Shown here: piece after piece, positions 8,162-26,297 of the stretch | Layout: every line of letters begins with the position of its first letter | How positions within the stretch are numbered: the stretch's first letter is position 1 | Assembly: GCF_001677475.2 (NCBI RefSeq) | Contig: NZ_CP015229.1 | From: Escherichia coli | GTDB taxonomy: Bacteria > Pseudomonadota > Gammaproteobacteria > Enterobacterales > Enterobacteriaceae | Direction: 5' to 3' (one strand) | Length of the DNA: 64,000 nucleotides | The notes under the pieces: model-generated | Told to the model about the DNA's origin: nothing | Databases searched by the model: none | The model's input: only the letters and a program-made list of their open reading frames with translations | Translations under genes and position numbers: made by a program

Positions 8162-8772
8162 TCTTGCTACAACTCTCCTCAGCCCAGGGACCGGAAGAAT
8201 GCTGCCTCGCAGTCAAAAAGGCGTTGGACAGGCTGATTAAAGAAGCATCCCAACAGCGTGTTGCGGTAACGGTGCTGGAGACAGAAACGGGCCGCTACTC
8301 TGATTCGCTGCGTTCAGCGCTGGTTTCTCTGGATGGCGACAACGCATGGGCATTAAGCGAAAGCTGGTGCGGCACTATTCAGTGGATTTGTCCGAGTCCG
8401 TATCGGCCTCATCATGGGCGCAAAAACTGGTTTCTGGGCATTGGGCGTTTTACCGCTGATGAGCAGGAACAATCGGATGCAATCCGTTATGAGACGCTGC
8501 GTTCGTCGGGGCCGGGCGGTCAACATGTCAATAAAACCGACTCGGCGGTACGCGCCACGCATCTGGCTACCGGAATTAGTGTGAAGGTTCAGTCAGAGCG
8601 CAGCCAGCATGCTAACAAACGGCTGGCGCGATTGCTGATCGCCTGGAAGCTGGAACAACAGCAACAGGAAAATAGCGCGGTGCTGAAATCGCAGCGGCGA
8701 ATGTTCCATCACCAGATTGAACGTGGCAACCCGCGACGGACATTTACAGGGATGGCTTTTATCGAAGGATAA
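8158..8772 (+). CDS. prfH: Peptide chain release factor homologue PrfH
   Basis: 204 aa from [15 protein letters not shown]; GGQ motif present ([17 protein letters not shown]); the longer ORF from 8074 overlaps rtcB and is taken as an extension artefact. Confidence 0.88.
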
Positions 8773-16664: not shown

Positions 16665-16740
16665 GCCGATATAGCTCAGTTGGTAGAGCAGCGCATTCGT
16701 AATGCGAAGGTCGTAGGTTCGACTCCTATTATCGGCACCA
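16665..16740 (+). tRNA. thrW: tRNA-Thr (anticodon CGU)
   Basis: 76 nt GCCGATATAGCTCAGTTGGTAGAGCAGCGCATTCGTAATGCGAAGGTCGTAGGTTCGACTCCTATTATCGGCACCA; cloverleaf with CGT anticodon and encoded CCA end. Confidence 0.95.
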
Positions 16741-16754
16741 TTTAAATCAATAAG

Positions 16755-17021
16755 TTACACATCATTAGTACCTTCCTTATTTCTTGACTGGGACAAATTT
16801 GGGACCGATGGGTTCAGAATCGAGTCTATTTGCCGTGCGTGTTCGGTAAGGTGATTAGGTGCGAGGTGAGCATATCGACGAACCATTTCAAGAGTTTCCC
16901 ATCCTCCCATTTCTGTAAGTGCAAGAAGAGAAACACTGGACTGAACCAGCCTGCTTGCCTTTGCTATCAAAGTACCTTGAGGACCAGATGATTTCTGGCG
17001 ATATTTACAGCGCGTCCGCAA
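16755..17021 (-). pseudogene. Tyrosine-recombinase (phage/P4-type integrase) C-terminal remnant
   Basis: Only about 50 C-terminal residues are integrase-like ([34 protein letters not shown], with the catalytic Tyr region); no N-terminal or core domains upstream; adjacent to the tRNA attachment site. Confidence 0.65.
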
Positions 17022-17107
17022 TGAGTTTTTCTCCGTGCCGCCAGTGACGTTCCCCGCTTTTTCAGTGCGGCGATAATATCAGCGGGATGCCAGTCCTGTT
17101 GTGTCAT
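16966..17107 (-). pseudogene. Ner/Nlp(SfsB)-like HTH regulator, 5' fragment fused to the integrase remnant
   Basis: Begins [24 protein letters not shown], matching the Ner/Nlp N-terminus as recalled, then diverges and stops after about 46 codons; a Ner-like segment (LIAKA) continues in the integrase-remnant frame. Confidence 0.45.
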
Positions 17108-17574
17108 ACAACCACCTCGCTGATAAATTTTACGCCGTCGGCGGTGCGCAGCCAGCGCGGGGCTTTGAGTCCTTCCATGAAATACCAGACCAGTTCACAC
17201 AACAGCCCGGTCAGGGTTTGTTCCGTTTTTGGTTCCGCCGGGCGTTCCAGCAGAAGCTGGAGTAGTGCGAGGCAGTATTCGCACAAGGAATCTGGTTCGG
17301 AAATAAAGTGCTCTGGTGTGGCGGGAAGGGTATCAACGGTCAGGCTTTCAATCAGATGCGGCGGGATGGGGTCGTGCAGCGTGGGGTGCAATAGCGCAAG
17401 AGCCGCGTGAAGCCGTCCGCAGAGCGCTAGCCGTAGCGCGGGATCGTCGGTTTCGATCAGGGTTTCGGCGAAGCGGGCGCAGTAATCGGCAAGGACAGTA
17501 AAATCCGTGGTGGCATTGAAGGGGGCGGACAGCAGATCGAGTAAATCGCAGTCAGGGGTGAGGGTTGTAGCCAT
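17104..17574 (-). CDS. Hypothetical protein, 156 aa, acidic and Leu-rich, no recognised domain
   Basis: ORF with an AGGAGA Shine-Dalgarno about 7 nt upstream of the ATG at 17574 (longest ORF starts at 17628); stop overlaps the ATG of the Ner-like fragment (ATGA); GC-rich relative to the neighbouring RT gene. Confidence 0.5.
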   Translation of the reverse strand: MATTLTPDCDLLDLLSAPFNATTDFTVLADYCARFAETLIETDDPALRLALCGRLHAALALLHPTLHDPIPPHLIESLTVDTLPATPEHFISEPDSLCEYCLALLQLLLERPAEPKTEQTLTGLLCELVWYFMEGLKAPRWLRTADGVKFISEVVV

Positions 17575-17917
17575 AGGGCGTCTCCTGTAACGGTTTATTA
17601 TGTCCGCCACTAGAGAGGCTAATCTCATGGGGGGCGGAACCGGACGGGGTTAGCCTTACCGGCGTTACAGGAAACCGGCGCGTCTTGCGACGCCCCCGCC
17701 CGGCCCGCCATTGAGGTGTAGCCGAACGCACGACACAAAAAAGACGCTGGTGCGTCAAGTGTCGCCTGTAACGGTTTTCAGGAGGCTAATCCCGACGCCT
17801 GATTTTGCAGGCGCGGGAGAAAGATACTGCGATTGGTCATGAGTGGCAAGGGCTACATCCTGTTTACCGACATCTCACGCAAAAATACCCTGATTATTAA
17901 TAGCGAAAATCAGTTTC

Positions 17918-20900
17918 TTATTTTGGCGGTAGCTTTTTGCGGTTCTTTGCCAATTGGAATCCTTCAGGTAACGGTTTGAATTTATCGCCGCCTTTAGGCC
18001 AGCGTTTTGCCCTGCTCTGAAATGCCCTTAACGAGTCGATATCCAGTGTTGCAGCGATCACAAAGTCATTATCGCCGCCCTTCACACGAGCAATATCACG
18101 CATAAAGGGTTCTTTTGCCGGGGAACGTACGCGACTATCGCCGTATTTTCGGTTATTCACTAAAATGGTATAGGCATGAATATCCAGCGCTGCTGATTCA
18201 ATCAACGATGCAAACGTATCCAGATCTTTATTCCAGCTCAATACCATTAATGCATCGAGCGCGCCCTGAAAACGGATCCTCGCTTTACTATTCTGGAGTT
18301 CAGAGCAAATCATAACGCCAAAATTGACGCCGTGATGAATATATACCGGCTTACGTTGTTTAACATTAAGTGTCGAGTCCCAAGACTTACCATAAGTTGA
18401 AAATAATGCCTCATCTTCACCTACGGCGGGTTCCAGCTTGGGTTGCCATATTTTGACACTCGCTGGATAGCCGAGTCTGTTATCTGAAAGGACAAGTACG
18501 GCCTCACTCTTCAGTTGATTATCGCCTAAGTGGCGGTATTCTGTTCCCGCAATTAGACTGATACCCGCCGAACTCAAACGATCAGCAATACTGTTAACCC
18601 AGCGTAACGGGATTGAAAGCTCGGGGAATAAAACATAATCAGGTTTAGGAGATAGTTTCAATGTTGCATTAACCAGTTCAGAAATCCGCTGGTACCTTGA
18701 ACGGGACAAGTTAGATTTATTGCAGGCCATTTTAGCCCAGTCGTCTTCCTCTGTTTTAATGCTGGTTAGCGCAACGACAATTTTATGTTTCCTGTCAGTG
18801 CCAATATGAATGAATTTCTTAGGCCGAGCTTTTTTTGTCGCTTCATCTGAGTCCTGCTCCGATGCTAGTAACGTCGGTTTGATCCATACACCGCGTAATG
18901 CTTGAGTATATTTTGCCCAAACGGTGGACGGTCTCTCATCTGGTTTTTTGTCGGATGTAGAGGGTAATCCAACACATTCGGGGGCCAGTTCTGATATTTC
19001 AGCGGGAGTTAAAGGACGTGTAGGGAAAATGTAAGGTAGGTAACTTTCGTTCTTACGATTTCCTTTAGCCACTTTTTCCAGTCGGGTATTCTTGGTTGAT
19101 TTCAAAAATAGCTTAATAACGTCAATATCAATAAGCGATGAGTCCCTCATTAATTTCAGTATTTTAACTTCTTTTTTACGATCACGCTGATTAACAAGTT
19201 TTTCTGCCGACTGACTCTTTACGATCTGTTTATAAGGTTCCTTTGCTAAATCAGCTCGAGCTACCAATGGCGCTTTTAAATAAAAATCTGCTGAATCAAA
19301 GCGAAGATCCAGTAAATCCTTTAGATTTGTCAGACTTTGTGAAATATGATTAAAAAATGTATCCGCAAGGCACTCTTCTTTCTTTGAACGTTTATCAAGA
19401 AATAATCTGTCAGGACTGTAATATCGTGTCGCTGCATCAACAAATAGCCAGCTTAATGTGCCTTTTATACAGCGCCAAAGATCATTTACTGCTCGAGTTT
19501 TGCAACCATTTATAGTCACTTCCTTACCTGAAGTAATCACCGATGCCAACAGGTTGATGGACTCGTAAGCTTTAAGTACAATTTTTTCCGCGTGCTGCCA
19601 TTCATTCATACTGATAGCAAAGCCAAGCAGCCTTGGCAGATAACTAAAATGTGCAAATAGATTATCAGCCCTAAGAATATGGTTGTAGGCAAACTGATAA
19701 AACTCTTCCCGCTGTTCTTTCCATTCACTTGGAGACAGATCTCGTGCCAGTGTTTCAACGTAGCGTAATTGCAGTGACCAGCCCAAACGACGAATGGTTA
19801 ATCCATCCGCACGGCGCAGAGTATCGGCATTTTCACCTACACTACCGGCAGCGGAAAGGACTTTAGCTGCGGTGGAGTGTTCCAGTTGATCCGGTGAAGG
19901 CATCAAGCGGTGTTCACTAGAAAGCTCGTAGATCTCCTTTTCGATACTGTCGAGCAGATCTATTCCTGCCCTCCCTTGAAGCACGAAAAGTTTTTGCTTA
20001 TCGGATTGTAACTGGATGGTGGTCTTACCCTGGAAATGCTCGCCCTGCTGTATTTGCCATATTTGTTTTTTCTCGTTTTTCAGATAAACGCAATCATTGC
20101 CAAGCCTATCTTGCAGCAATAACATAAATTCGTGATTATTAGTAATTTTACCTGTATCGCGTATTACAAGGAACATATCATCGACATAACGACCGTAGTG
20201 AATTGGCGACAGTTTTTCAATGACTAATTTATCCCAATGGTGTAGCAATATATTGGAAATGATCCGACTGGCTGTTAATCCAATGACCAGACCACCATTA
20301 ATAACAGGTGTTTTGTACGCTATTTTTTTTCCAAATGCCGCTGCGCCGTCAGACCAGTGCTTTAAGAATACAGCTAACTGTGCAGTAAACGCTTTTTCAT
20401 GCTCAGTCAGTTTTATGTTTAGTGTGTTATAGAGATCATCAGAGGTTATAGCCAGTGGATCAATAAAATGATAGTAACTTTTTAAATCCAGTGAGGCGGC
20501 GATAATGTCACGATCTTTTTCCAACTCGTCACGTATAGCTTTTAAGCCATCACCACGCCATTTTTGGTAGGGCTGGAAATAGGGGCTAAAAGAACCCACG
20601 GCACTGATATGGAATGGATTATCCTGCTCATTGCTAAATAATTCATCATTACGAATACGTTTTAGCCGCGCGCCATAACAACAGTTGTCTAAGCTGGCAT
20701 CAAATTTATGCCCGACCATATTAATCCATAGTGCAGAGATAATGTGACTATCAACCGGGAAGTCACCAATAATACGAAACTCTGGTATCAGATCAAAATT
20801 ATTAAATAAATGGTCGGCTGCTCGTTTAGGATTAGAAAAGTGGACGTGTCCATTTTGGAATTCATGTTTTTTCTTTGTGGTTAATTTTTTCGGTAACAAA

Positions 20901-21127
20901 CGAAATTTGCCAATCAACTTCTTATTGCTACTGAATCCATCTTCGCTCTGCAAAATATCTAAGAGTTCTTGCAGGTTTTCAATTAATTCCTGCTCATACT
21001 CGGCAAATTTGATAGCAACAGGAAATGTATTCTCAAAGAAGCTATCGGCTTTGGCTTTCCGGTAAGCGACCAGAAGGTCTTCAATCGTCAGATCATCCCA
21101 GCCAGTGAAAGTTGCCTGATATGTCAT
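17918..21127 (-). CDS. Reverse transcriptase fused to a C-terminal nitrilase (CN-hydrolase) domain; UG/Abi-type defence-associated RT (DRT type 1 / UG1-like architecture)
   Basis: 1069 aa. RT motifs: motif A ASLDLKSYYHFID, motif B GLVIGLTASRIISNILL, motif C YGRYVDDMFLV (about aa 310-320). C-terminal ~280 aa carry a nitrilase-like Glu/Cys pattern (VLFPELSIP ... GVMICSELQ). AT-rich gene in an island next to a tRNA. Confidence 0.85.
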   Translation of the reverse strand: MTYQATFTGWDDLTIEDLLVAYRKAKADSFFENTFPVAIKFAEYEQELIENLQELLDILQSEDGFSSNKKLIGKFRLLPKKLTTKKKHEFQNGHVHFSNPKRAADHLFNNFDLIPEFRIIGDFPVDSHIISALWINMVGHKFDASLDNCCYGARLKRIRNDELFSNEQDNPFHISAVGSFSPYFQPYQKWRGDGLKAIRDELEKDRDIIAASLDLKSYYHFIDPLAITSDDLYNTLNIKLTEHEKAFTAQLAVFLKHWSDGAAAFGKKIAYKTPVINGGLVIGLTASRIISNILLHHWDKLVIEKLSPIHYGRYVDDMFLVIRDTGKITNNHEFMLLLQDRLGNDCVYLKNEKKQIWQIQQGEHFQGKTTIQLQSDKQKLFVLQGRAGIDLLDSIEKEIYELSSEHRLMPSPDQLEHSTAAKVLSAAGSVGENADTLRRADGLTIRRLGWSLQLRYVETLARDLSPSEWKEQREEFYQFAYNHILRADNLFAHFSYLPRLLGFAISMNEWQHAEKIVLKAYESINLLASVITSGKEVTINGCKTRAVNDLWRCIKGTLSWLFVDAATRYYSPDRLFLDKRSKKEECLADTFFNHISQSLTNLKDLLDLRFDSADFYLKAPLVARADLAKEPYKQIVKSQSAEKLVNQRDRKKEVKILKLMRDSSLIDIDVIKLFLKSTKNTRLEKVAKGNRKNESYLPYIFPTRPLTPAEISELAPECVGLPSTSDKKPDERPSTVWAKYTQALRGVWIKPTLLASEQDSDEATKKARPKKFIHIGTDRKHKIVVALTSIKTEEDDWAKMACNKSNLSRSRYQRISELVNATLKLSPKPDYVLFPELSIPLRWVNSIADRLSSAGISLIAGTEYRHLGDNQLKSEAVLVLSDNRLGYPASVKIWQPKLEPAVGEDEALFSTYGKSWDSTLNVKQRKPVYIHHGVNFGVMICSELQNSKARIRFQGALDALMVLSWNKDLDTFASLIESAALDIHAYTILVNNRKYGDSRVRSPAKEPFMRDIARVKGGDNDFVIAATLDIDSLRAFQSRAKRWPKGGDKFKPLPEGFQLAKNRKKLPPK

Positions 21128-21422: not shown

Positions 21423-22226
21423 ATGTCTATTCAGGGGCGACATTTGCCAAATTATCTAAACTGGCTGATGCAGAATACGCTACCCGGTCAGGTGCTGCTC
21501 CAGTCATGGCTTACCCGCAACGGCGTAGATCGTAAGCTCTCTTACCTCTATGTCCAGAATGGCTGGCTCAGGCGGATCGCTCACGGCGTATACTGCCGGA
21601 CGGGTCGTGAACCGGACTGGGTGGACGCGGTTTACTGCCTGCAAACACAGTGGGAAAAGCCAGTACGGGTGGCGGGGCTAACCAGCCTTGCGCTTCAGGG
21701 CCATGCGCACTATACCGAACCGGGTAAGCCGCAAATCTGGCTCGCGCTTCCGGCTTACGTCAAACTGCCGGGATGGTTTGCTGCCTTCGAACAATCTGCA
21801 ACATTTATCACGCTGTATACATCGGGCCTTACCGTTGATGTCACGTCATTTACTACGGAACTGAAAATTGGCGACCGGCAGTTAGCAGGCAGTGCCCCGG
21901 AACTGGCCGCGTATGAGATCGCCTGCGGCGTTCCTTCGTTGATATCGTTCGAACATGCCGATGCTCTGTTTCAGGGGATGAATCTTCTCAGCCCGCGTAA
22001 ATTGCAGGCGTTACTCTGCGCCAGTCATTCGGTTAAAACCAACCGGGTGATGCTTTACCTTGCCCGGCGTAATGGACACCCTTATTTTCAGTATATTGAT
22101 CAAAGCGGTATAGAAACAGGTACGGGAAAGCGGCAAATCATACCCGGCGGCTGGCTGGAGCCGGATTATCAAATTACTGTTCCACGCGAATTTAAACCGG
22201 AAGGAGTCGAAGATGGATCTGCGTGA
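21423..22226 (+). CDS. AbiEi-family antitoxin / transcriptional regulator (type IV TA, abortive infection)
   Basis: 267 aa; N-terminal winged-helix pattern (LTRNGVDRKLSYLYVQNGWLRRIAHGVYCRTG) typical of AbiEi; overlaps the downstream nucleotidyltransferase gene by 14 nt. Confidence 0.65.
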   Translation: MSIQGRHLPNYLNWLMQNTLPGQVLLQSWLTRNGVDRKLSYLYVQNGWLRRIAHGVYCRTGREPDWVDAVYCLQTQWEKPVRVAGLTSLALQGHAHYTEPGKPQIWLALPAYVKLPGWFAAFEQSATFITLYTSGLTVDVTSFTTELKIGDRQLAGSAPELAAYEIACGVPSLISFEHADALFQGMNLLSPRKLQALLCASHSVKTNRVMLYLARRNGHPYFQYIDQSGIETGTGKRQIIPGGWLEPDYQITVPREFKPEGVEDGSA

Positions 22227-23133
22227 TAGCTATACCCGGCAGGTCAAACTGTTGATGGCCGCTCTGCCGCATGTGGCGAAGGAGTCCTGTTTCGCGTTGA
22301 AAGGCGGCACGGCAATCAATTTGTTTGTGCAGGATTTTCCCCGTCTGTCGGTGGATATCGATCTGGCGTATAAGACTTTTGCGGATCGCGATACCGATTT
22401 GACGGCGATCAACGACGCTTTGAAGAGAATTACTGCATCGCTGAACAGTAAACCGGGGATTACCGCGATTCGGCAGGAAAATAAAACGGATGAAAAGCGC
22501 ATCATTGTGAATACGGCTGATGCCCAGATTAAGATCGAGGTTAGTCCGGTCTGGCGTGGGCTGTTGTTGCCTCCGGCAGAAATGTCGGTGTGCGAACGTG
22601 TGGAAATGGAGTATGGCTTCACCACTATGAGTGTCGTTTCGCTGGCGGATCTTTATGGCGGTAAAATCTGCGCAGCGCTTGATCGTCAGCACCCGCGCGA
22701 TCTGTTTGATGTGCTGAATATGCTGGAGAAACCGGGACTGATGCGGGAGATCTTTGACGGTTTTCTTTGTTATCTGGCAGGCCATCCCCGCCCCATTGCC
22801 GAGTTGCTGGCCCCAAACTGGGATACAGAGCGGATCACGACGCTGTATGCCCAGGAATTTTCGGGGATGACTCAGCAGGAAACGTCGCTGGAATCGCTGC
22901 TGTCAGTAACGACTTTGCTGCCGCAGGCGTTGAAGTCACATCTTACGGATCTGGATCGCGAGTTCTTGCTCAGTTTTAAGCAAAACAGCCCTGACTGGTC
23001 GCGGTATCGCTATCCTGAAATTCAGCATCTTCCGGCTATTCGCTGGAAGCAACGCAATCTGGCGGTGCTTAAAGATAAAAATCCGGCGAAGTATGTGGCG
23101 GCGGTGAATAAGCTAGAGAGGGTGCTGGAGTAA
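22213..23133 (+). CDS. AbiEii/AbiGii-family nucleotidyltransferase toxin (DUF1814)
   Basis: 306 aa; N-terminal LKGGTAINLF and DIDLAY motifs of the AbiEii nucleotidyltransferase fold; translationally coupled to the upstream AbiEi-like gene. Confidence 0.75.
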   Translation: MDLRDSYTRQVKLLMAALPHVAKESCFALKGGTAINLFVQDFPRLSVDIDLAYKTFADRDTDLTAINDALKRITASLNSKPGITAIRQENKTDEKRIIVNTADAQIKIEVSPVWRGLLLPPAEMSVCERVEMEYGFTTMSVVSLADLYGGKICAALDRQHPRDLFDVLNMLEKPGLMREIFDGFLCYLAGHPRPIAELLAPNWDTERITTLYAQEFSGMTQQETSLESLLSVTTLLPQALKSHLTDLDREFLLSFKQNSPDWSRYRYPEIQHLPAIRWKQRNLAVLKDKNPAKYVAAVNKLERVLE

Positions 23134-23538
23134 TATTCTTAGCGCTGTTCAGGGACTCTGAATTGGGCCATGATGCTTTGGTTATATGAATAACTTCGTG
23201 GCCATAACTCAAACATATTCATTTAATTCAATACATAGCACCATCGAGTAAGAGATCGCTGAGTCATTAGACGATCTCTGCTCGTGGAAATACGAAACTA
23301 TCTCTTTCCAAAGCTGATCTGAATAACATTATCTGGAGCATCATTATTAGACCTGATGATCTCATGCTCAATAAAATCCCCCCATTTCAAAAAAAGATCC
23401 CGTAATTTTTCCGCCTGCTGCCCGACCTGATAAGTTCTGATTAATCTGTCTTTCGGAACATGATTCAACAGAAGTTCTATAAGCCGTTCTGGCGCATCCA
23501 GATACTCAGCACAGCCTGTAGAGTGCAGGTGCAGACAT

Positions 23539-24438
23539 TTAAGCCAATTGCTGCCGCCATTCCTTGACGTGGTCAATCAGGGCGCGGAGCTTTGGTGCAA
23601 TATTGCGACGCTGTGGGAAATACAGATAGAAGCCCGGAAATTGTGGAAGAAAGTCATCAAGCAGCGATACAAGCTTACCGCTTTCAATATATGGCCTGAA
23701 CGTTTCCTGAGTGGCAATTGTTATTCCTCCGCCGGCAAGAGCCAGCCTCAACATCAGACGCAGATCATTCGTCGTAATCTGCGGTTCAATCGCAAGGTCG
23801 AAAGCTCTACCGTTTTCTTCAAATGGCCAGCGATAAGGAGCAACCTCCGGGGACTGACGCCAGCCGATACACTTATGATTCACAAGTTCACGCGGGTGAA
23901 CAGGTGTGCTGTTGGCTGCGAGATAGGAGGGAGAGGCAACGACCATTTCACGCTGCCTGGCGGTAAGGGGAACAGCAATCATGTCTTTTTCAATGACCTC
24001 TCCGAGCCTTACGCCAGCATCGTAACCTGCGGCAACGATATCGAATTCCTCATCCGTGACAACAATATCAAGCGTAACGGCTGGATTGGCAGCTGCAAAC
24101 GAAGCGATTAGCGGACCTGAAAGAAATTCTTCTGCTATCGACGTCACCGCGATTCTGAGATGTCCACGTGGTACATGGTCAGAAACCATCTCTTCGAACG
24201 CTGCCTCAATACCGGATAAAGGTAATGACAACGATTTATGCAGCCGTTCTCCCGCTTCCGTCAAATTAACTGAGCGCGTGGTCCGCATTACAAGCATTGT
24301 CCCGAATGCATCTTCAAGGCGTCTTATTCCCTGACTGACCGCTGAACGGGTAACGCCCAGTCGTGCGGCGGCTTTACTGAAATTACTCTCTTCTGCTACC
24401 GCGATAAAAATGGGTAAAAGATTAAGATCGATTTTCAT
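23539..24438 (-). CDS. LysR-family transcriptional regulator
   Basis: 299 aa; N-terminal HTH (FSKAAARLGVTRSAVSQGIRRLE) and LysR substrate-binding domain; divergent from an SDR gene. Confidence 0.85.
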   Translation of the reverse strand: MKIDLNLLPIFIAVAEESNFSKAAARLGVTRSAVSQGIRRLEDAFGTMLVMRTTRSVNLTEAGERLHKSLSLPLSGIEAAFEEMVSDHVPRGHLRIAVTSIAEEFLSGPLIASFAAANPAVTLDIVVTDEEFDIVAAGYDAGVRLGEVIEKDMIAVPLTARQREMVVASPSYLAANSTPVHPRELVNHKCIGWRQSPEVAPYRWPFEENGRAFDLAIEPQITTNDLRLMLRLALAGGGITIATQETFRPYIESGKLVSLLDDFLPQFPGFYLYFPQRRNIAPKLRALIDHVKEWRQQLA

Positions 24439-24536
24439 TGTTTAATGCCGCTAACCACTGAGTACATTGAAAGCAGGATACTGGAACCAATCATAAAGTT
24501 CTATTATCTCTCCGAACACATTTGAAGGAGAACGTA

Positions 24537-25259
24537 ATGGATAAGGTCATATTAATCACCGGCGCATCAAGTGGTATTGGGGAAGGTATTGCCAGAGAAC
24601 TGGGAACGACAGGTGCGAAGGTTTTACTGGGCGCACGCAGAGTTGAGCGTATCGAAGCCATTGCAACCGAAATCTGCCTCGCAGGAGGAATTGCTAAAGC
24701 GCGGGAGTTGGATGTCACAGACCGACAGTCCATGGCCGATTTCGTGCAAGCAGCGCTGGATAACTGGGGGCGAGTTGATGTTCTTATCAATAATGCGGGC
24801 GTTATGCCGCTTTCACCGCTTGCAGCAGGAAAACAGGATGAATGGGAGCTCACTATTGACGTGAATATCAAAGGTGTACTGTGGGGAATTGGCGCTGTAC
24901 TTCCGGTGATGGAAGCACAGGGTTCCGGTCAGATAATCAATCTTGGTTCTATTGGTGCCCTTTCTGTTGTGCCCACAGGCGCAGTCTATTGTGCATCAAA
25001 ATTTGCAGTACGGGCTATTTCTGATGGCTTACGGCAGGAAAGCTCGAAAATCCGTGTGACCTGCGTAAATCCTGGCGTTGTCGAAAGTGAACTGGCTTCA
25101 ACCATTACCCATGTGGAAACCATGAAGGCAATGGACGCCTACCGTTCTGTTGCACTTCAACCCGCGGATATTGCCCGTGCTGTAAGGCATATTATTGAAT
25201 CTCCCGAAAGCGTTGATACAACCGAAATTACCATCAGACCCACTGCATCTGCAAACTGA
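24537..25259 (+). CDS. Short-chain dehydrogenase/reductase (SDR) family oxidoreductase
   Basis: TGASSGIG Rossmann motif and the S...YxxxK catalytic pattern (YCASK); start taken at MDKVILITG. Confidence 0.85.
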   Translation: MDKVILITGASSGIGEGIARELGTTGAKVLLGARRVERIEAIATEICLAGGIAKARELDVTDRQSMADFVQAALDNWGRVDVLINNAGVMPLSPLAAGKQDEWELTIDVNIKGVLWGIGAVLPVMEAQGSGQIINLGSIGALSVVPTGAVYCASKFAVRAISDGLRQESSKIRVTCVNPGVVESELASTITHVETMKAMDAYRSVALQPADIARAVRHIIESPESVDTTEITIRPTASAN

Positions 25260-25470
25260 AGAATAACTTTTACATTCACGTTTTATTAAATATGTCAGAA
25301 GGAAAATTTATATCCACCTGTTTTGCATAGCAAGATGCATTATGTATTGCTCACCCCGAAGGAGATGAAGTTTTAATTACAGAAGGAGTATTTTCTCTTG
25401 GAGTAAATATGGCTCATGTTTAATGCCTATGTATATAAAACTCATCCTCTCAATTGTCAGGAGAATTAAC

Positions 25471-25701
25471 ATGAATACTATCTGTTCTTTAATTGTTGTG
25501 GTTACACTGTCTTTATTATCATTCAGTAGCGTCGCCAAAACGATTACTGCCGTCGGTTCAACCATCGACAGCACTGAAAAAGAAATTTCTTTACAGGCAG
25601 AAAAACAAGGAAAATCATATAAAATTCTGGGCGCATTTTTCAAGAACAGAGTTTATATTATAGCAAAGTTAACACCAGTCAGTAAAAATGATGCTTCATA
25701 A
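25471..25701 (+). CDS. Small secreted DUF1471 (YdgH/BhsA/McbA-like) protein
   Basis: About 76 aa with a signal peptide (MNTICSLIVVVTLSLLSFSSVA) and a mature part resembling the BhsA/YhcN family; boundaries uncertain. Confidence 0.5.
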   Translation: MNTICSLIVVVTLSLLSFSSVAKTITAVGSTIDSTEKEISLQAEKQGKSYKILGAFFKNRVYIIAKLTPVSKNDAS

Positions 25702-25752
25702 GGCTCATGATATAATTTTTAAGACATGATCAAGAAGCACGTTTATTTATTC

Positions 25753-25880
25753 ATATACTCTAAATAATTCAAGTTGCAGGAAGGCGACAAGTGAGTGAAT
25801 CCCCAGGAGCTTACAAAAGTAAGTGACTGGGGTGAATGAACGCAGTCGCAGCACATGCAACTTGAAGTATGACGAGTATA
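25753..25880. repeat. ERIC/IRU element, copy 2
   Basis: Over 90% identical by eye to the copy at 6873-7008 (GTGAATCCCCAGGAGCTTAC ... AAGTAAGTGACTGGGGTGAATG). Confidence 0.85.
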
Positions 25881-26031
25881 ATTATCATTATTATGGCCAT
25901 GGAATACCTGACAAATGACGCTACCCCAACCTTCTGTACCAGTCGTTCTGCTAATTCTACCGATGCTTCGGTCTGGAGTGGTAGAGTAATATTAGACACA
26001 GTTTTATTTTCTCTCTTTTTCGAGGGCTGTA

Positions 26032-26297
26032 TATGAACAGGAAGAATACATCCCTAAGCGGTTAATGCTGGCGTAATCAATAGACCAGCATTAATCACAG
26101 ATGATTATCAATCAGACAGAAATGGTTAAATCGTCGAATTCATAATTAATACTTTTTGTAACGCCGCTGAATAGCTTGAAAAGGATGTATATTTTAAATA
26201 TCAGTGAAGTGAACAGTTTATTGCCGTTATTAATAGAAATGGAGGAATAAATACGCGTATTCTACTATTGCAACAAAAACAACGATATTGATCATTT
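26032..26297. repeat. Intergenic repeat module, intact copy (two halves contiguous)
   Basis: First half matches 44674-44784 and second half matches 45478-45622 (for example TATTTTAAATATCAGTGAAGTGAACAGTTTATTGCCGTTATTAATAGAAATGGAG); contains an internal inverted repeat TTAATGCTGG...CCAGCATTAA. Confidence 0.7.

Follow-up and report, generated by a model that had tools for sequence, protein, structure and literature searches.

An ORF153-family backbone gene, probably under P4/P1-type RNA immunity, beside a defense cargo slot in an Escherichia coli tRNA island

Gene content of the locus

The window (the whole stretch of E. coli DNA that was analyzed, 64,000 nucleotides) contains a decayed island at the tRNA gene thrW, which is flanked by frsA-crl-phoE-proB-proA as in E. 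coli 042. The features of the locus are listed in Table 1.

Table 1. Features of the thrW island in the window, with positions counted from the first letter of the window
Feature	Position	Strand	Evidence and remarks
tRNA-Thr (CGT), thrW	16665..16740	+	ARAGORN; Rfam tRNA, 71.8 bits; island attachment site
P4-type tyrosine integrase remnant, C-terminal ~60 codons	16755..16961	-	PHROG matches
Ner/SfsB-like (HTH_35) pseudogene	16951..17107	-	In frame over ~24 codons from the ATG; frameshifted and truncated beyond
ORF156	CDS 17574-17107; TGA 17106-17104	-	156 aa; first cistron behind C4; member of an uncharacterized family of ~153 aa (ORF153)
Downstream C4 target boxes	Region 17581..17622; a2 TTAGCC 17622-17617; b2 CGTTACAGG 17592-17584	-	
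C4/P4-CI-type antisense RNA gene	17627..17715	-	Rfam RF01695, full-length, 73.7 bits (gathering 45), E 4.6e-14
C4 pairing elements	Loop CCUGUAACG 17671-17663; junction GGCUAA 17655-17650	-	
IsrK/P4-seqA-like leader	17737..17827	-	Rfam isrK RF01394, 68 bits (gathering 50)
Leader boxes	a1 17789-17784; b1 17773-17765	-	C4 target set 1
Intrinsic terminator, hairpin and T-run	17756-17737	-	Terminator scan; lies in the leader
Candidate sigma-70-like promoter, TTGCCA-17-TATCTT	17821..17849	-	Consensus scan only; a few nucleotides upstream of the leader
RT fused to nitrilase, UG5-large type DRT (cargo)	17918..21127	-	PADLOC RT_UG5-nitrilase PDLC03780, full-length, 1031.7 bits
AbiEi antitoxin/AbiEii nucleotidyltransferase toxin pair (cargo)	21423..23133	+	PGAP names; 97-99% identical to E. 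coli 042 genes

The open frame of ORF156 spans positions 17104 to 17628 on the minus strand and encodes 174 aa when counted from its first ATG (17628). Homologous loci do not conserve this upstream ATG, which falls within the 3' end of the C4 RNA. The ATG at 17574, which follows an AGGAGA Shine-Dalgarno sequence (17586-17581) and a 6-nt spacer, is the conserved start and gives a protein of 156 aa; its GGAGG-N6-8-ATGGCTAC context was retained in 30 or more homologous loci. A previous sequence-only reading of the locus had chosen this start with its AGGAGA and had described the product as acidic and Leu-rich and the gene as higher in GC than the RT gene, all of which was borne out. The protein has a pI of 4.46, 23 D+E against 9 K+R and 19.9% Leu, and the GC content of the gene is 57.9% (GC3 64%), compared with 41.8% (GC3 38%) for the RT gene. 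The maximum 19-residue Kyte-Doolittle hydropathy was 1.09, under the threshold of about 1.6, indicating that no transmembrane segment is present.

The TGA of ORF156 overlaps the ATG of the Ner-like frame (GTATGACAC; ATGA at 17107-17104). Of 26 distinct intact ORF-Ner pairs taken from other species, 25 have the identical 4-nt stop/start overlap, which upholds the proposal that the two genes once formed an operon. Intact Ner partner genes elsewhere resemble Mu Ner and E. coli SfsB (Nlp), matching NCBIfam SfsB (E 9e-34) and Pfam HTH_35, whereas in the frame of the window only the first ~25 residues match SfsB/Ner (NCBIfam NF007670, E 2.9e-8; PHROG 769 'transcriptional repressor'). A tblastn search with an intact Ner recovered two pieces in different frames, in which ~57 codons survive, fused to the last ~60 codons of the integrase. 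The frame switch and the fusion to the integrase tail mean that the term 'Ner-like fragment' was correct. To our knowledge, no Ner gene has been described with an ORF153-type cistron upstream.

The integrase remnant matched PHROG 35951, PHROG 1 and PHROG 216 ('integrase') with E values of 8e-22 to 1.5e-7 over residues 21-82 of an 88-aa ORF, and PGAP annotates the equivalent stretch of E. coli 042 as a partial integrase. The Ner-integrase junction is colinear in E. coli 042 and E. coli 4/1-1, being a deletion junction common to diverged alleles. No attR repeat of the tRNA 3' end was detected within 10 kb of the island in the window.

RNA-immunity cassette upstream of ORF156

The GC-rich 340 nt between the RT stop codon and ORF156 constitute a complete P4/P1-type antisense-RNA immunity cassette. 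Its elements are ordered as promoter, IsrK/seqA leader with a1/b1 boxes and terminator, C4/CI antisense RNA and a2/b2 boxes. IsrK is a homologue of seqA and C4 is a homologue of CI (PMC3632133; PMC4825925). The Rfam model c4-a1b1 (RF03163) scored 43.8 bits in the window, slightly under its gathering threshold of 46.7, and 50 bits in Dickeya loci. The trio of isrK, c4-a1b1 and C4 was also found in phage P4 and in the loci tested from E. coli, Klebsiella and Dickeya, and a C4 family member was located at the equivalent place in five other loci and phage P4. The CTTGC...GTATCT motif of the promoter is conserved in alignments of other loci, and we infer from its position that this candidate promoter is the equivalent of P4 PLE.

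The b2 box overlaps the Shine-Dalgarno sequence of ORF156, and b1 and b2 were also recovered as a direct repeat. From this arrangement, the small antisense RNA C4 appears to switch ORF156 off by covering its ribosome-binding site. The C4 loop is of the type CCUGUAAC in the window versus CCGAUAAG in E. coli 042, and the b-box specificity of the two alleles has changed in step at all three sites.

The sequence-only reading had overlooked the RNA cassette 5' of ORF156. The 68-aa ORF that overlies C4 in the window (17552-17758) did not match Pfam Phage_ASH, whereas equivalent ORFs elsewhere did. The 'ash family protein' calls (Pfam PF10554) overlie the C4 RNA gene and probably do not represent proteins.

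Covariation of C4 with its target boxes

Whole-molecule RNAduplex calculations for C4 and the initiation region could not tell cognate from noncognate combinations (-44 versus -40 kcal/mol), because the GC-rich stems dominate the energies. Column-wise covariation was therefore used, in which the C4 loop and junction were paired with the target boxes across 23 species. For a2/b2, 92.7% of the cells were paired and compensatory changes were present in 11 of 15 pairs; the corresponding values for a1/b1 were 97.4% and 13 of 15. The covariation score was reached by none of 500 shuffles, and pairing fell to 19-47% when the partner was slid by 1-3 columns. At least four a-types and at least seven b-types occurred, in mixed combinations. 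Judged by this covariation, the C4 loop and junction are complementary to both a1/b1 and a2/b2.

Conservation and predicted fold of the ORF153 family

ORF156 had been labeled an orphan, which was wrong: 616 clusters of a 90%-clustered protein collection were related to it at E <= 1e-3, across Enterobacterales, and were reduced to 181 representatives at 50% identity. In E. coli, 1329 genomes contained a member of the family, and the thrW-type ORF156, which is annotated as an intact CDS, was present in approximately 804. Carriage amounts to about one-quarter of complete E. coli genomes, with up to four copies per genome. Many truncated members exist, as do solo ORF153 remnants between chromosomal genes (locus L055). 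In viral collections, IMG/VR scans with two family members gave no match, and a single 1.5-kb unannotated record with a family match was found in the INPHARED phage collection.

The statement that the protein has no recognizable motif holds under homology tools as well. Neither the protein nor an alignment of 40 sequences gave a profile match in Pfam-A, PHROGs v4 or NCBIfam 20, or in an hmmsearch of PDB sequences. One AFDB relative is named 'DUF1484 domain-containing protein', but no family member matched that Pfam family. Nevertheless, dN/dS in the family is 0.09-0.33 and ten residues are nearly invariant. Between the window and E. coli 042, the block at 16.7-17.9 kb is 82-94% identical, compared with 98-99% for its flanks; divergence is 8.3% in the common pseudogene block and 7.9% in ORF156, where 26 of the 37 changes are synonymous (dN/dS 0.13, binomial P = 2e-8). 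To judge from these substitution patterns, ORF156 is a genuine, conserved and uncharacterized protein gene.

The AF2 model of ORF156 (pLDDT 89.5, pTM 0.82) is a four-helix bundle with a C-terminal beta-hairpin. The protein is predicted to be a small, acidic, soluble four-helix bundle without a catalytic motif. An AF2 run on an ORF153-(GGGGS)6-Ner fusion, with a shallow paired alignment of 19 rows, gave a pTM of 0.47 and a lowered pLDDT.

Island backbone and cargo

In the intact module, the cargo is followed by the leader, C4, ORF153, Ner, EFASI RNA and a XerC-like integrase, after which come a P4-type integrase, encoded on the opposite strand, and the tRNA. Across 34 species loci, only the Ner-like gene, the XerC-like 'Integrase_1' and the P4-type integrase recurred with ORF153, while everything upstream of the leader was variable. 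The P4-type integrase was intact in 18 related loci, and in intact loci it shared 55-60% identity with that of P4. Decay in the window has wrecked Ner and the integrases and spared the candidate promoter, the leader, C4, the target boxes and ORF156. ORF156 is a backbone gene of a decayed, P4-satellite-like, tRNA-integrated island. The suggestion that it belongs to the backbone rather than to the RT cargo is thereby supported, since its constant companions in the 34 loci are all backbone genes and the cargo varies.

The cargo upstream of ORF153 modules included Avs2, PDC-S21, LmuB (Lamassu), PDC-S06, RM with DarTG, AbiE with DUF4747, and RT-UG5-nitrilase. The cargo slot is a defense hotspot, and the RT-nitrilase and AbiE of the window are interchangeable cargo, not partners of ORF156.

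Satellite relatives and known systems

More distant homologues of ORF153 occur without Ner in P4-like satellites. P0146 (44% identity, E 2.4e-23), encoded in a thrW P4-like satellite, has an eta-like gene on one side and epsilon-like/alpha-like genes on the other; P0160 (40% identity) precedes a DUF927 primase. Within 10 kb of the near-family loci, no P4 alpha, sid, delta, psu or P2-type cos was found, and none of the loci examined contained a P2/P4 cos-like sequence. When all P4 proteins were searched by tblastn against the window and 50 or more loci, only the integrase and the 'cI ORF' stretch over C4 matched.

Several P4 proteins were considered as homologues of ORF156 and rejected. ORF151, which is similar in size and position, gave a BLASTP E value of 10 and an hhalign probability of 0.09%; epsilon (PF25738) likewise gave an hhalign probability of 0.09%, and eta/the old 'cI ORF' had no detectable similarity. 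ORF156 had no Pfam or PHROG match to the known antirepressor families epsilon, P1 Ant and Gifsy AnrP.

The immunity region and left operon of P4 read PLE - seqA - CI RNA - seqC - eta/kil - epsilon - orf151 - orf106 - alpha. The window resembles P4 in the identical order of isrK/seqA, c4-a1b1 and C4/CI and in the downstream target box at the start of the first protein gene; the P4-type integrase is a feature of the intact related loci, of which the window retains the last ~60 codons, and distant ORF153 homologues are located in satellite early operons by epsilon-like and alpha-like genes. ORF156, as the first cistron behind C4, occupies the payload position of an immunity-controlled early operon. 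The island differs in having a Ner-like HTH gene, EFASI RNA and a XerC-like integrase after ORF153, where P4 has epsilon and alpha, and in that the island operon is directed toward the integrase and tRNA and the satellite operon away from them.

The organization of immI of P1/P7 (c4 RNA - icd - ant) is established in the literature for P1. There, too, the two single-stranded elements of C4 pair with a1/b1 and a2/b2, b2 overlaps the ribosome-binding site of the first ORF, and this ORF is translationally coupled to a regulator gene. However, the 153-aa helical bundle ORF153 and the 73-aa Icd are unrelated, the coupled gene encodes a Ner/SfsB-type HTH protein here and the Ant antirepressor in P1, and the element is a small integrative island and not a plasmid prophage.

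In the isrK - orf45 - anrP region of Salmonella Gifsy-1, IsrK controls the coupled translation of orf45 and anrP, which overlap by AUGA (Hershko-Shalev et al. 2016; PMC4825925). The IsrK leader and the AUGA overlap are shared with the window, as would be terminator read-through, a processed RNA of ~80 nt downstream and the gating of the second gene by translation of the first ORF (PMC4825925). In Gifsy-1, however, orf45, of 45 codons, overlaps the RNA element and encodes a nonconserved peptide, with an antirepressor as payload (PMC4825925), whereas the first ORF in the window encodes a conserved protein of 153-156 aa and is separate from the RNA gene.

Discussion

Taken as a whole, ORF156 is probably a real ORF153-family backbone gene of Enterobacterales tRNA islands that are under P4/P1-type RNA immunity, with the RT and AbiE as cargo. 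The RNA immunity of such islands would be borrowed from phage P1 and the satellite phage P4. At rest, C4 would pair with a2/b2 and block ribosome entry on ORF153, which would silence the coupled Ner gene too; C4 pairing may also favor premature termination. Titrating or outrunning C4 would allow ORF153 and Ner to be made and the 'induced' program of the element to start. We infer this control by analogy with P1 c4-icd-ant, P4 CI-seqC and Gifsy-1 isrK-orf45-anrP. Because ORF153 is a predicted acidic soluble bundle with homologues beside epsilon (helper derepression) and primase alpha, it may, as a tentative guess at its role, be an antirepressor-type protein-binding adaptor acting on a helper-phage, host or element regulator.

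The sequence-only reading had left room for ORF156 to regulate the RT or act with it. In favor of a regulatory or accessory-subunit role in the neighboring RT-nitrilase (UG5/DRT) system, both genes are on one strand, 340 nt separate the RT stop from ORF156 downstream, and no terminator was detected on their strand in that interval apart from the leader hairpin and T-run; a Serratia locus (L027) has the same RT-AbiE block adjoining an ORF153 gene. That locus, however, is the only one of the 34 species loci in which an RT-nitrilase adjoins a family member. The RT gene is present in 260 E. coli genomes, far fewer than carry ORF156 or any family member, and in E. coli 4/1-1 the identical thrW remnant has a type I RM system (hsdRMS) in place of the RT; the GC contents of the two genes also differ. 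The check set in advance, co-occurrence with RT-nitrilase genes in other genomes, likewise went against partnership: homologues sit in satellite early operons and do not co-occur with RT-nitrilases. The RT of the window is a full-length relative of the UG5-large RT-nitrilase (DRT11; E. coli 101 system; Rousset et al. 2022) and, like other such systems, lies in a mobile-element defense hotspot, beside AbiE. A published UG5-large system works with its RT and nitrilase domains alone, and its usual neighbor or accessory is a transmembrane protein (bioRxiv 10.64898/2025.12.16.694600), whereas ORF156 is modeled as soluble, is acidic and is linked to the backbone. The RT-partner reading is largely refuted, and we consider it very improbable. 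A similarly slight chance is given to the reading that only the act of translation matters, in which case ORF156 would be a leader ORF, its translation exposing the Ner ribosome-binding site and keeping Rho from terminating transcription, and its protein would be functionless. Gifsy-1 orf45 is a model for this, and the ATGA coupling with Ner is conserved, but so are the amino acids, including the ten nearly invariant residues; the compact fold is predicted with confidence, and homologues without Ner exist in P4-like satellites.

Two further explanations concern the persistence of an open ORF156 in a wrecked island. It could be a functionless relic that has not yet decayed and whose conservation stems from its history in intact islands, consistent with its dead operon partner and integrases, with the many truncated family members and with the lower identity of the 16.7-17.9 kb block to E. 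coli 042, which is compatible with recombined-in sequence. This is unlikely, as the deletion junction is common to diverged alleles and yet the ORF is open in about 800 E. coli genomes, with strongly synonymous-biased substitutions. Alternatively, C4 and ORF156 could form a type I/III-like pair of RNA antitoxin and protein toxin or an abortive-infection trigger, persisting in wrecked islands as loss of C4 would be lethal or C4-titrating infections would be aborted. The leader, C4, boxes and ORF156 are intact where Ner and integrase are destroyed, the changes in ORF156 are biased toward synonymous ones, the b-box specificity differs in step at three sites between alleles, and solo ORF153 remnants exist, all of which fit such a pair. 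Growth inhibition by icd of P1 and kil of P4, each the first ORF after C4, also counts in its favor. So does TraDIS in S. Typhi, where IsrK-like elements of P4-like prophages were required (PMC3632133). On the other hand, ORF156 resembles no toxin family; addiction would put selection on C4, with no obvious reason for the toxin to stay intact; and intact islands elsewhere in the genome may have refreshed the block of ORF and C4 through gene conversion. We regard a toxin role as unlikely.

A more speculative extension, to which we give only a low probability, is that the C4-gated ORF156 is a self-standing infection sensor-effector that was kept by selection after Ner, the integrases and mobility were lost. 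IsrK/seqA-type decoys of matching specificity from a P4-like satellite or a P1-like or lambdoid phage would titrate C4, or the trigger might be a perturbation of RNase P/Hfq by an incoming element, and the released ORF156 would act as a toxic or regulatory protein alongside the defense cargo. The intact cassettes in approximately 800 E. coli remnants, the dN/dS of 0.13 across a common junction and the coordinated b-type switch are compatible with such a sensor. If it exists, an arms race would have left its trace in the many a/b box specificities.

As an ordinary backbone gene, ORF156 comes off the list of candidate RT partners. The PF10554 'ash' calls over C4 affect satellite-detection pipelines that rely on that marker. 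The backbone of the reading favored here, comprising the IsrK leader, C4, ORF153, Ner, EFASI RNA and the XerC-like and P4-type integrases, is compact and widespread and places the orphan Rfam motifs C4, IsrK and EFASI in a single operon context. It adjoins the slot where Enterobacterales swap antiphage systems, which makes it a practical landmark for defense hotspots, and its many natural specificity types make it a clean case in which RNA immunity can be tested.

ORF156 and its family

The sequence-only reading of ORF156, the 156-aa gene beside the reverse transcriptase (RT) gene, was accurate in its particulars: an AGGAGA Shine-Dalgarno sequence lies six nucleotides 5' of the ATG at 17574, the ORF156 TGA shares nucleotides with the ATG that starts the Ner-like frame (ATGA, 17107-17104), the GC content (57.9%, GC3 64%) exceeds that of the RT gene (41.8%, GC3 38%), and the product is acidic and leucine rich (pI 4.46, 19.9% Leu). 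ATG 17574 is the conserved start, with GGAGG-N6-8-ATGGCTAC kept among homologous loci; these loci do not conserve ATG 17628, which opens a longer frame inside the 3' end of an RNA gene.

The label "orphan" was wrong. At E <= 1e-3, 616 clusters were found in a 90%-clustered collection, and an exhaustive phmmer search of 1.84 billion representatives gave 181 family clusters at 50% identity. The members of this family (ORF153) are mostly 153 aa long and come from Escherichia, Salmonella, Klebsiella, Enterobacter, Citrobacter, Dickeya, Pectobacterium, Hafnia, Brenneria and others. Pairwise dN/dS was 0.09-0.33. ORF156 is thus a real gene and not an orphan. It did lack a recognizable motif, as had been noted, with no match to any curated family. 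The fold searches that had been proposed hit nothing beyond generic four-helix bundles and unnamed family members, and no transmembrane segment was found in ORF156. The AlphaFold2 model (40-sequence alignment; pLDDT 89.5, pTM 0.82) has four long helices, a short helix and a C-terminal beta-hairpin following a conserved KAPRW/F motif.

The ORF156 allele (17107-17574) reached at most 93.5% nucleotide identity in complete E. coli RefSeq genomes, and the RT gene was matched at 98.5% in 260. Because no complete RefSeq E. coli genome exceeded 93.5% over ORF156, the cassette allele of the window is either rare or from a lineage outside the complete E. coli genome collection.

An RNA cassette upstream of ORF156

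The earlier reading overlooked an RNA cassette 5' of ORF156. Its isrK, c4-a1b1 and C4 elements also occur in phage P4, at 8420-8705; IsrK has been equated with P4 seqA, and C4, an antisense RNA, with P4 CI RNA (PMC3632133; PMC4825925). In the tested E. coli, Klebsiella and Dickeya loci, C4 and isrK each lie as far from the ORF153 gene as they do in the window.

Features of the locus (coordinates are those of the window unless a locus is named)
Feature	Coordinates	Strand	Remarks
tRNA-Thr thrW	16665-16740	+	
P4-type integrase	16755-16961	-	last ~60 codons
Ner/SfsB-like reading frame	16951-17107	-	frameshifted and truncated
ORF156	17574-17104	-	
b2 CGTTACAGG	17592-17584	-	overlaps Shine-Dalgarno 17586-17581
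a2 TTAGCC	17622-17617	-	just 5' of ORF156
C4 antisense RNA	17627-17715	-	Rfam, 73.7 bits (gathering score 45)
Hairpin and T-run	17756-17737	-	leader end
isrK	17737-17814	-	Rfam, 68 bits (gathering score 50)
b1 CGTTACAGG	17773-17765	-	leader
a1 TTAGCC	17789-17784	-	leader
c4-a1b1	17775-17827	-	Rfam, 43.8 bits, slightly below gathering score 46.7
Sigma-70-like promoter, TTGCCA-17-TATCTT	17849-17821	-	5' of leader
GC-rich non-coding DNA, 340 nt	between ORF156 and RT gene		
RT-nitrilase	17918-21127	-	1069 aa
AbiEi/AbiEii pair	21423-23133	+	
LysR-family regulator, YafC-like	23539-24438	-	within 23135-26065 segment
SDR oxidoreductase	24522-25259	+	within 23135-26065 segment
"ash" ORF	L002:9865-10023		C4 at L002:9861-9948
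"ash" ORF	L001:10020-10193		E. coli 042
"ash" ORF	L059:8865-9023		E. coli 4/1-1

Each of two target sets in the window, a1/b1 in the leader and a2/b2 just before ORF156, complements the hairpin loop (CCUGUAACG) and junction (GGCUAA) of C4. When this region was aligned over 23 loci, each from a different species, C4 paired with a2/b2 in 92.7% of cells, with changes on both sides in 11 of 15 pairs, and with a1/b1 in 97.4% of cells, with compensatory changes in 13 of 15. The covariation score was reached by none of 500 shuffles, and sliding the partner by 1-3 columns lowered the pairing to 19-47%. This is direct comparative evidence for selection on the RNA-target interaction, with the ORF153 initiation region as its downstream target. 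At least four a-types (GGCUAA, UUCCAA, GACCAA and GGUCAA) and seven b-types appeared in mixed combinations in the alignment, and these box types look like immunity specificities.

The a2-b2 spacer GUGGCGGA (17599-17606; GUGGUGG in most loci) complements the 3' strand of the C4 closing stem, UCCGCCCC (17633-17640; UCCACCAC elsewhere). The two were paired in 89% of cells (alignment columns 206-213 with 234-241); covariation was weak, with two pairs changed on both sides. This complementarity could reflect a third contact, or else the unprocessed transcript could fold in an alternative way.

The C4/CI RNA gene is overlain by ORFs that PGAP annotates as "ash family protein" and that have Pfam PF10554 (Phage_ASH), and tblastn matches of the old P4 "cI gene product" ORF were confined to the C4 stretch; the Ash family is thus probably a conserved RNA gene read as protein. 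Ash was used as a synonym of epsilon in one satellite paper (PMC8628076). The 68-aa ORF over C4 in the window (RNA gene 17627-17715) had no PF10554 match.

Island backbone and exchangeable cargo

The ORF153 gene was present in all 34 loci fetched from different species, to which several more were added by exact-protein look-up. Recurring with it were a Ner-like HTH_35 gene, whose ATG overlapped the ORF153 stop in 25 of 26 distinct pairs, a 294-aa XerC-like "Integrase_1" gene (16/34 loci) and a tRNA-adjacent P4-type integrase (18/34). Upstream of the leader, no gene was found in five or more of the 34 loci. The cargo there comprised Avs2, PDC-S21, Lamassu LmuB, PDC-S06, type I restriction-modification (RM) with DarTG, AbiE with DUF4747 and TacAT, and Rhs fragments; RT-UG5-nitrilase with AbiE was found in the window and in Serratia (L027). 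Because the Ner-like gene and integrases recur while the upstream genes vary, ORF156 belongs to the backbone, as its GC content had suggested, and the RT is one cargo among many.

A role of ORF156 as partner or regulator of the RT, which had also been considered, was contradicted by poor co-occurrence and by replacement of the RT in E. coli 4/1-1. Of 5426 complete E. coli genomes, 260 carry the RT gene, about 804 a thrW-type ORF156 and 1329 at least one family member. In E. coli 4/1-1, where the thrW remnant and AbiE pair are identical, hsdRMS takes the place of the RT. Between the C4 leader and AbiE, type I RM (L059:2692-8658) stands for the RT-nitrilase of the window (17918-21127), a clean exchange of cargo within a fixed frame. 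One UG5-large RT-nitrilase has been shown to need only its two domains for defence, and the usual neighbour of UG5-large systems is a membrane protein (bioRxiv 10.64898/2025.12.16.694600).

In intact islands, EFASI RNA (Rfam RF02957, 99-119 bits), an orphan motif, lies between the Ner-like gene and Integrase_1 (L007:11300-11429; L002, L004:11733-11861), is oriented in the direction of the C4-controlled operon and was lost by deletion in the window. An isrC RNA match (RF01387, 145 bits; L002, L004:7868-7990) lies at the 5' end of an IS3-family transposase gene, beside island cargo.

State of the remnant

The host DNA of the window is Escherichia chromosome, with frsA-crl-phoE-proB-proA preceding tRNA-Thr, and was 97.4% identical to E. 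coli 042 across 14.3 kb. PGAP gives the same order in 042: partial integrase, partial HTH protein, WP_000201185.1 "hypothetical protein", "ash family protein" and RT. At the right island edge, window 23135-26065 (~2.9 kb) has no counterpart in 042.

The island is wrecked in the window, yet ORF156 has survived intact, and so have the promoter, leader, C4 and the two target sets. The window, 042 and 4/1-1 share a colinear Ner/integrase junction, so the deletion is old. The window and 042 differ by 8.3% in the pseudogene block and by 7.9% in ORF156; 26 of the 37 ORF156 changes were synonymous, whereas neutrality predicts 26% (binomial p 2e-8; dN/dS 0.13). The 16741-17900 block was 82-94% identical, and the flanks (proA side and RT-AbiE side) 98-99.5%. 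The minimum (82%) falls over C4 and a2/b2, and the b-type differs in step at b1, the C4 loop and b2 (CGTTACAGG/CCUGUAACG in the window, CTTATCGG/CCGAUAAGG in 042). This low identity and coordinated switch suggest that the immunity cassette has recombined or is under diversifying selection. E. coli genomes carry up to four family members. The cassette would be either still selected in the remnant or repeatedly refreshed by recombination with intact copies, and it is because of these two options that both a novel sensor-type reading and a toxin-like rival are raised.

Relation to P4-like satellites and other elements

The alpha, sid, delta, psu and epsilon genes and a P2-type cos were absent from every near-family locus, and the near-family operon runs towards the integrase, whereas that of P4-like satellites runs away from it. 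Therefore, these islands are not P4-like satellites by the usual definition. The distant family protein P0146 (44% identity, E 2.4e-23) lies within a thrW-integrated element with the order int-AlpA-...-P2-capsid-like gene-(divergent small gene)-eta-like p67-p69-ORF149-p159-epsilon-like-alpha-like primase-Ogr/Delta; its epsilon-like gene has 46% identity to P4 epsilon (Pfam "Derepression"). P0160 (40% identity) heads an early operon that ends in a DUF927 primase. L053/L054 4707-15345 is a P4-like satellite at thrW with a Phage_cap_P2 (Pfam) gene, epsilon-like "Derepression", alpha-like primase, Ogr/Delta and YefM/YoeB; no C4 RNA was found in it at the Rfam gathering threshold, and a small divergent gene fronts its early operon.

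In Morganella morganii (L039:8381-16975), ORF153-Ner is followed by PFGI-1-type ICE genes (ParB TIGR03764, PFL_4669, TraR and SSB). An IS630 transposase there takes the place of the leader and C4, and b2 and the Shine-Dalgarno sequence alone remain. The solo family gene P0137 (44% identity; L055:7319-7780, L056:2092-2553) is flanked by ordinary chromosomal genes, and neither Ner nor an integrase or tRNA is nearby; it is a further case of the ORF outliving its island.

Proposed control and role

By analogy with P1 c4-icd-ant, P4 CI-seqC and Gifsy-1 isrK-orf45-anrP, C4 would repress translation of ORF153 and may promote termination. In the Gifsy-1 operon, translation of the first ORF gates the coupled second gene through an AUGA overlap (PMC4825925), and ORF153-Ner has the same stop/start overlap as orf45-anrP. 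The common denominator of the ORF153 relatives is an early place in a repressor- or RNA-controlled "activation" operon of integrative elements. From this position, we infer that the ORF153 protein may be an adaptor or antirepressor-like factor; comparisons of it with epsilon, ORF151 and the P4 "cI" ORF showed no similarity, and no predicted ORF153-Ner complex was obtained. The regulatory anatomy itself is well supported. As the first cistron in the RNA-immunity-controlled operon (P4/P1 type) of a Ner-type integrative island, ORF156 has been left beside swappable defence cargo. The regulatory device is already known; the payload and the element context are new.
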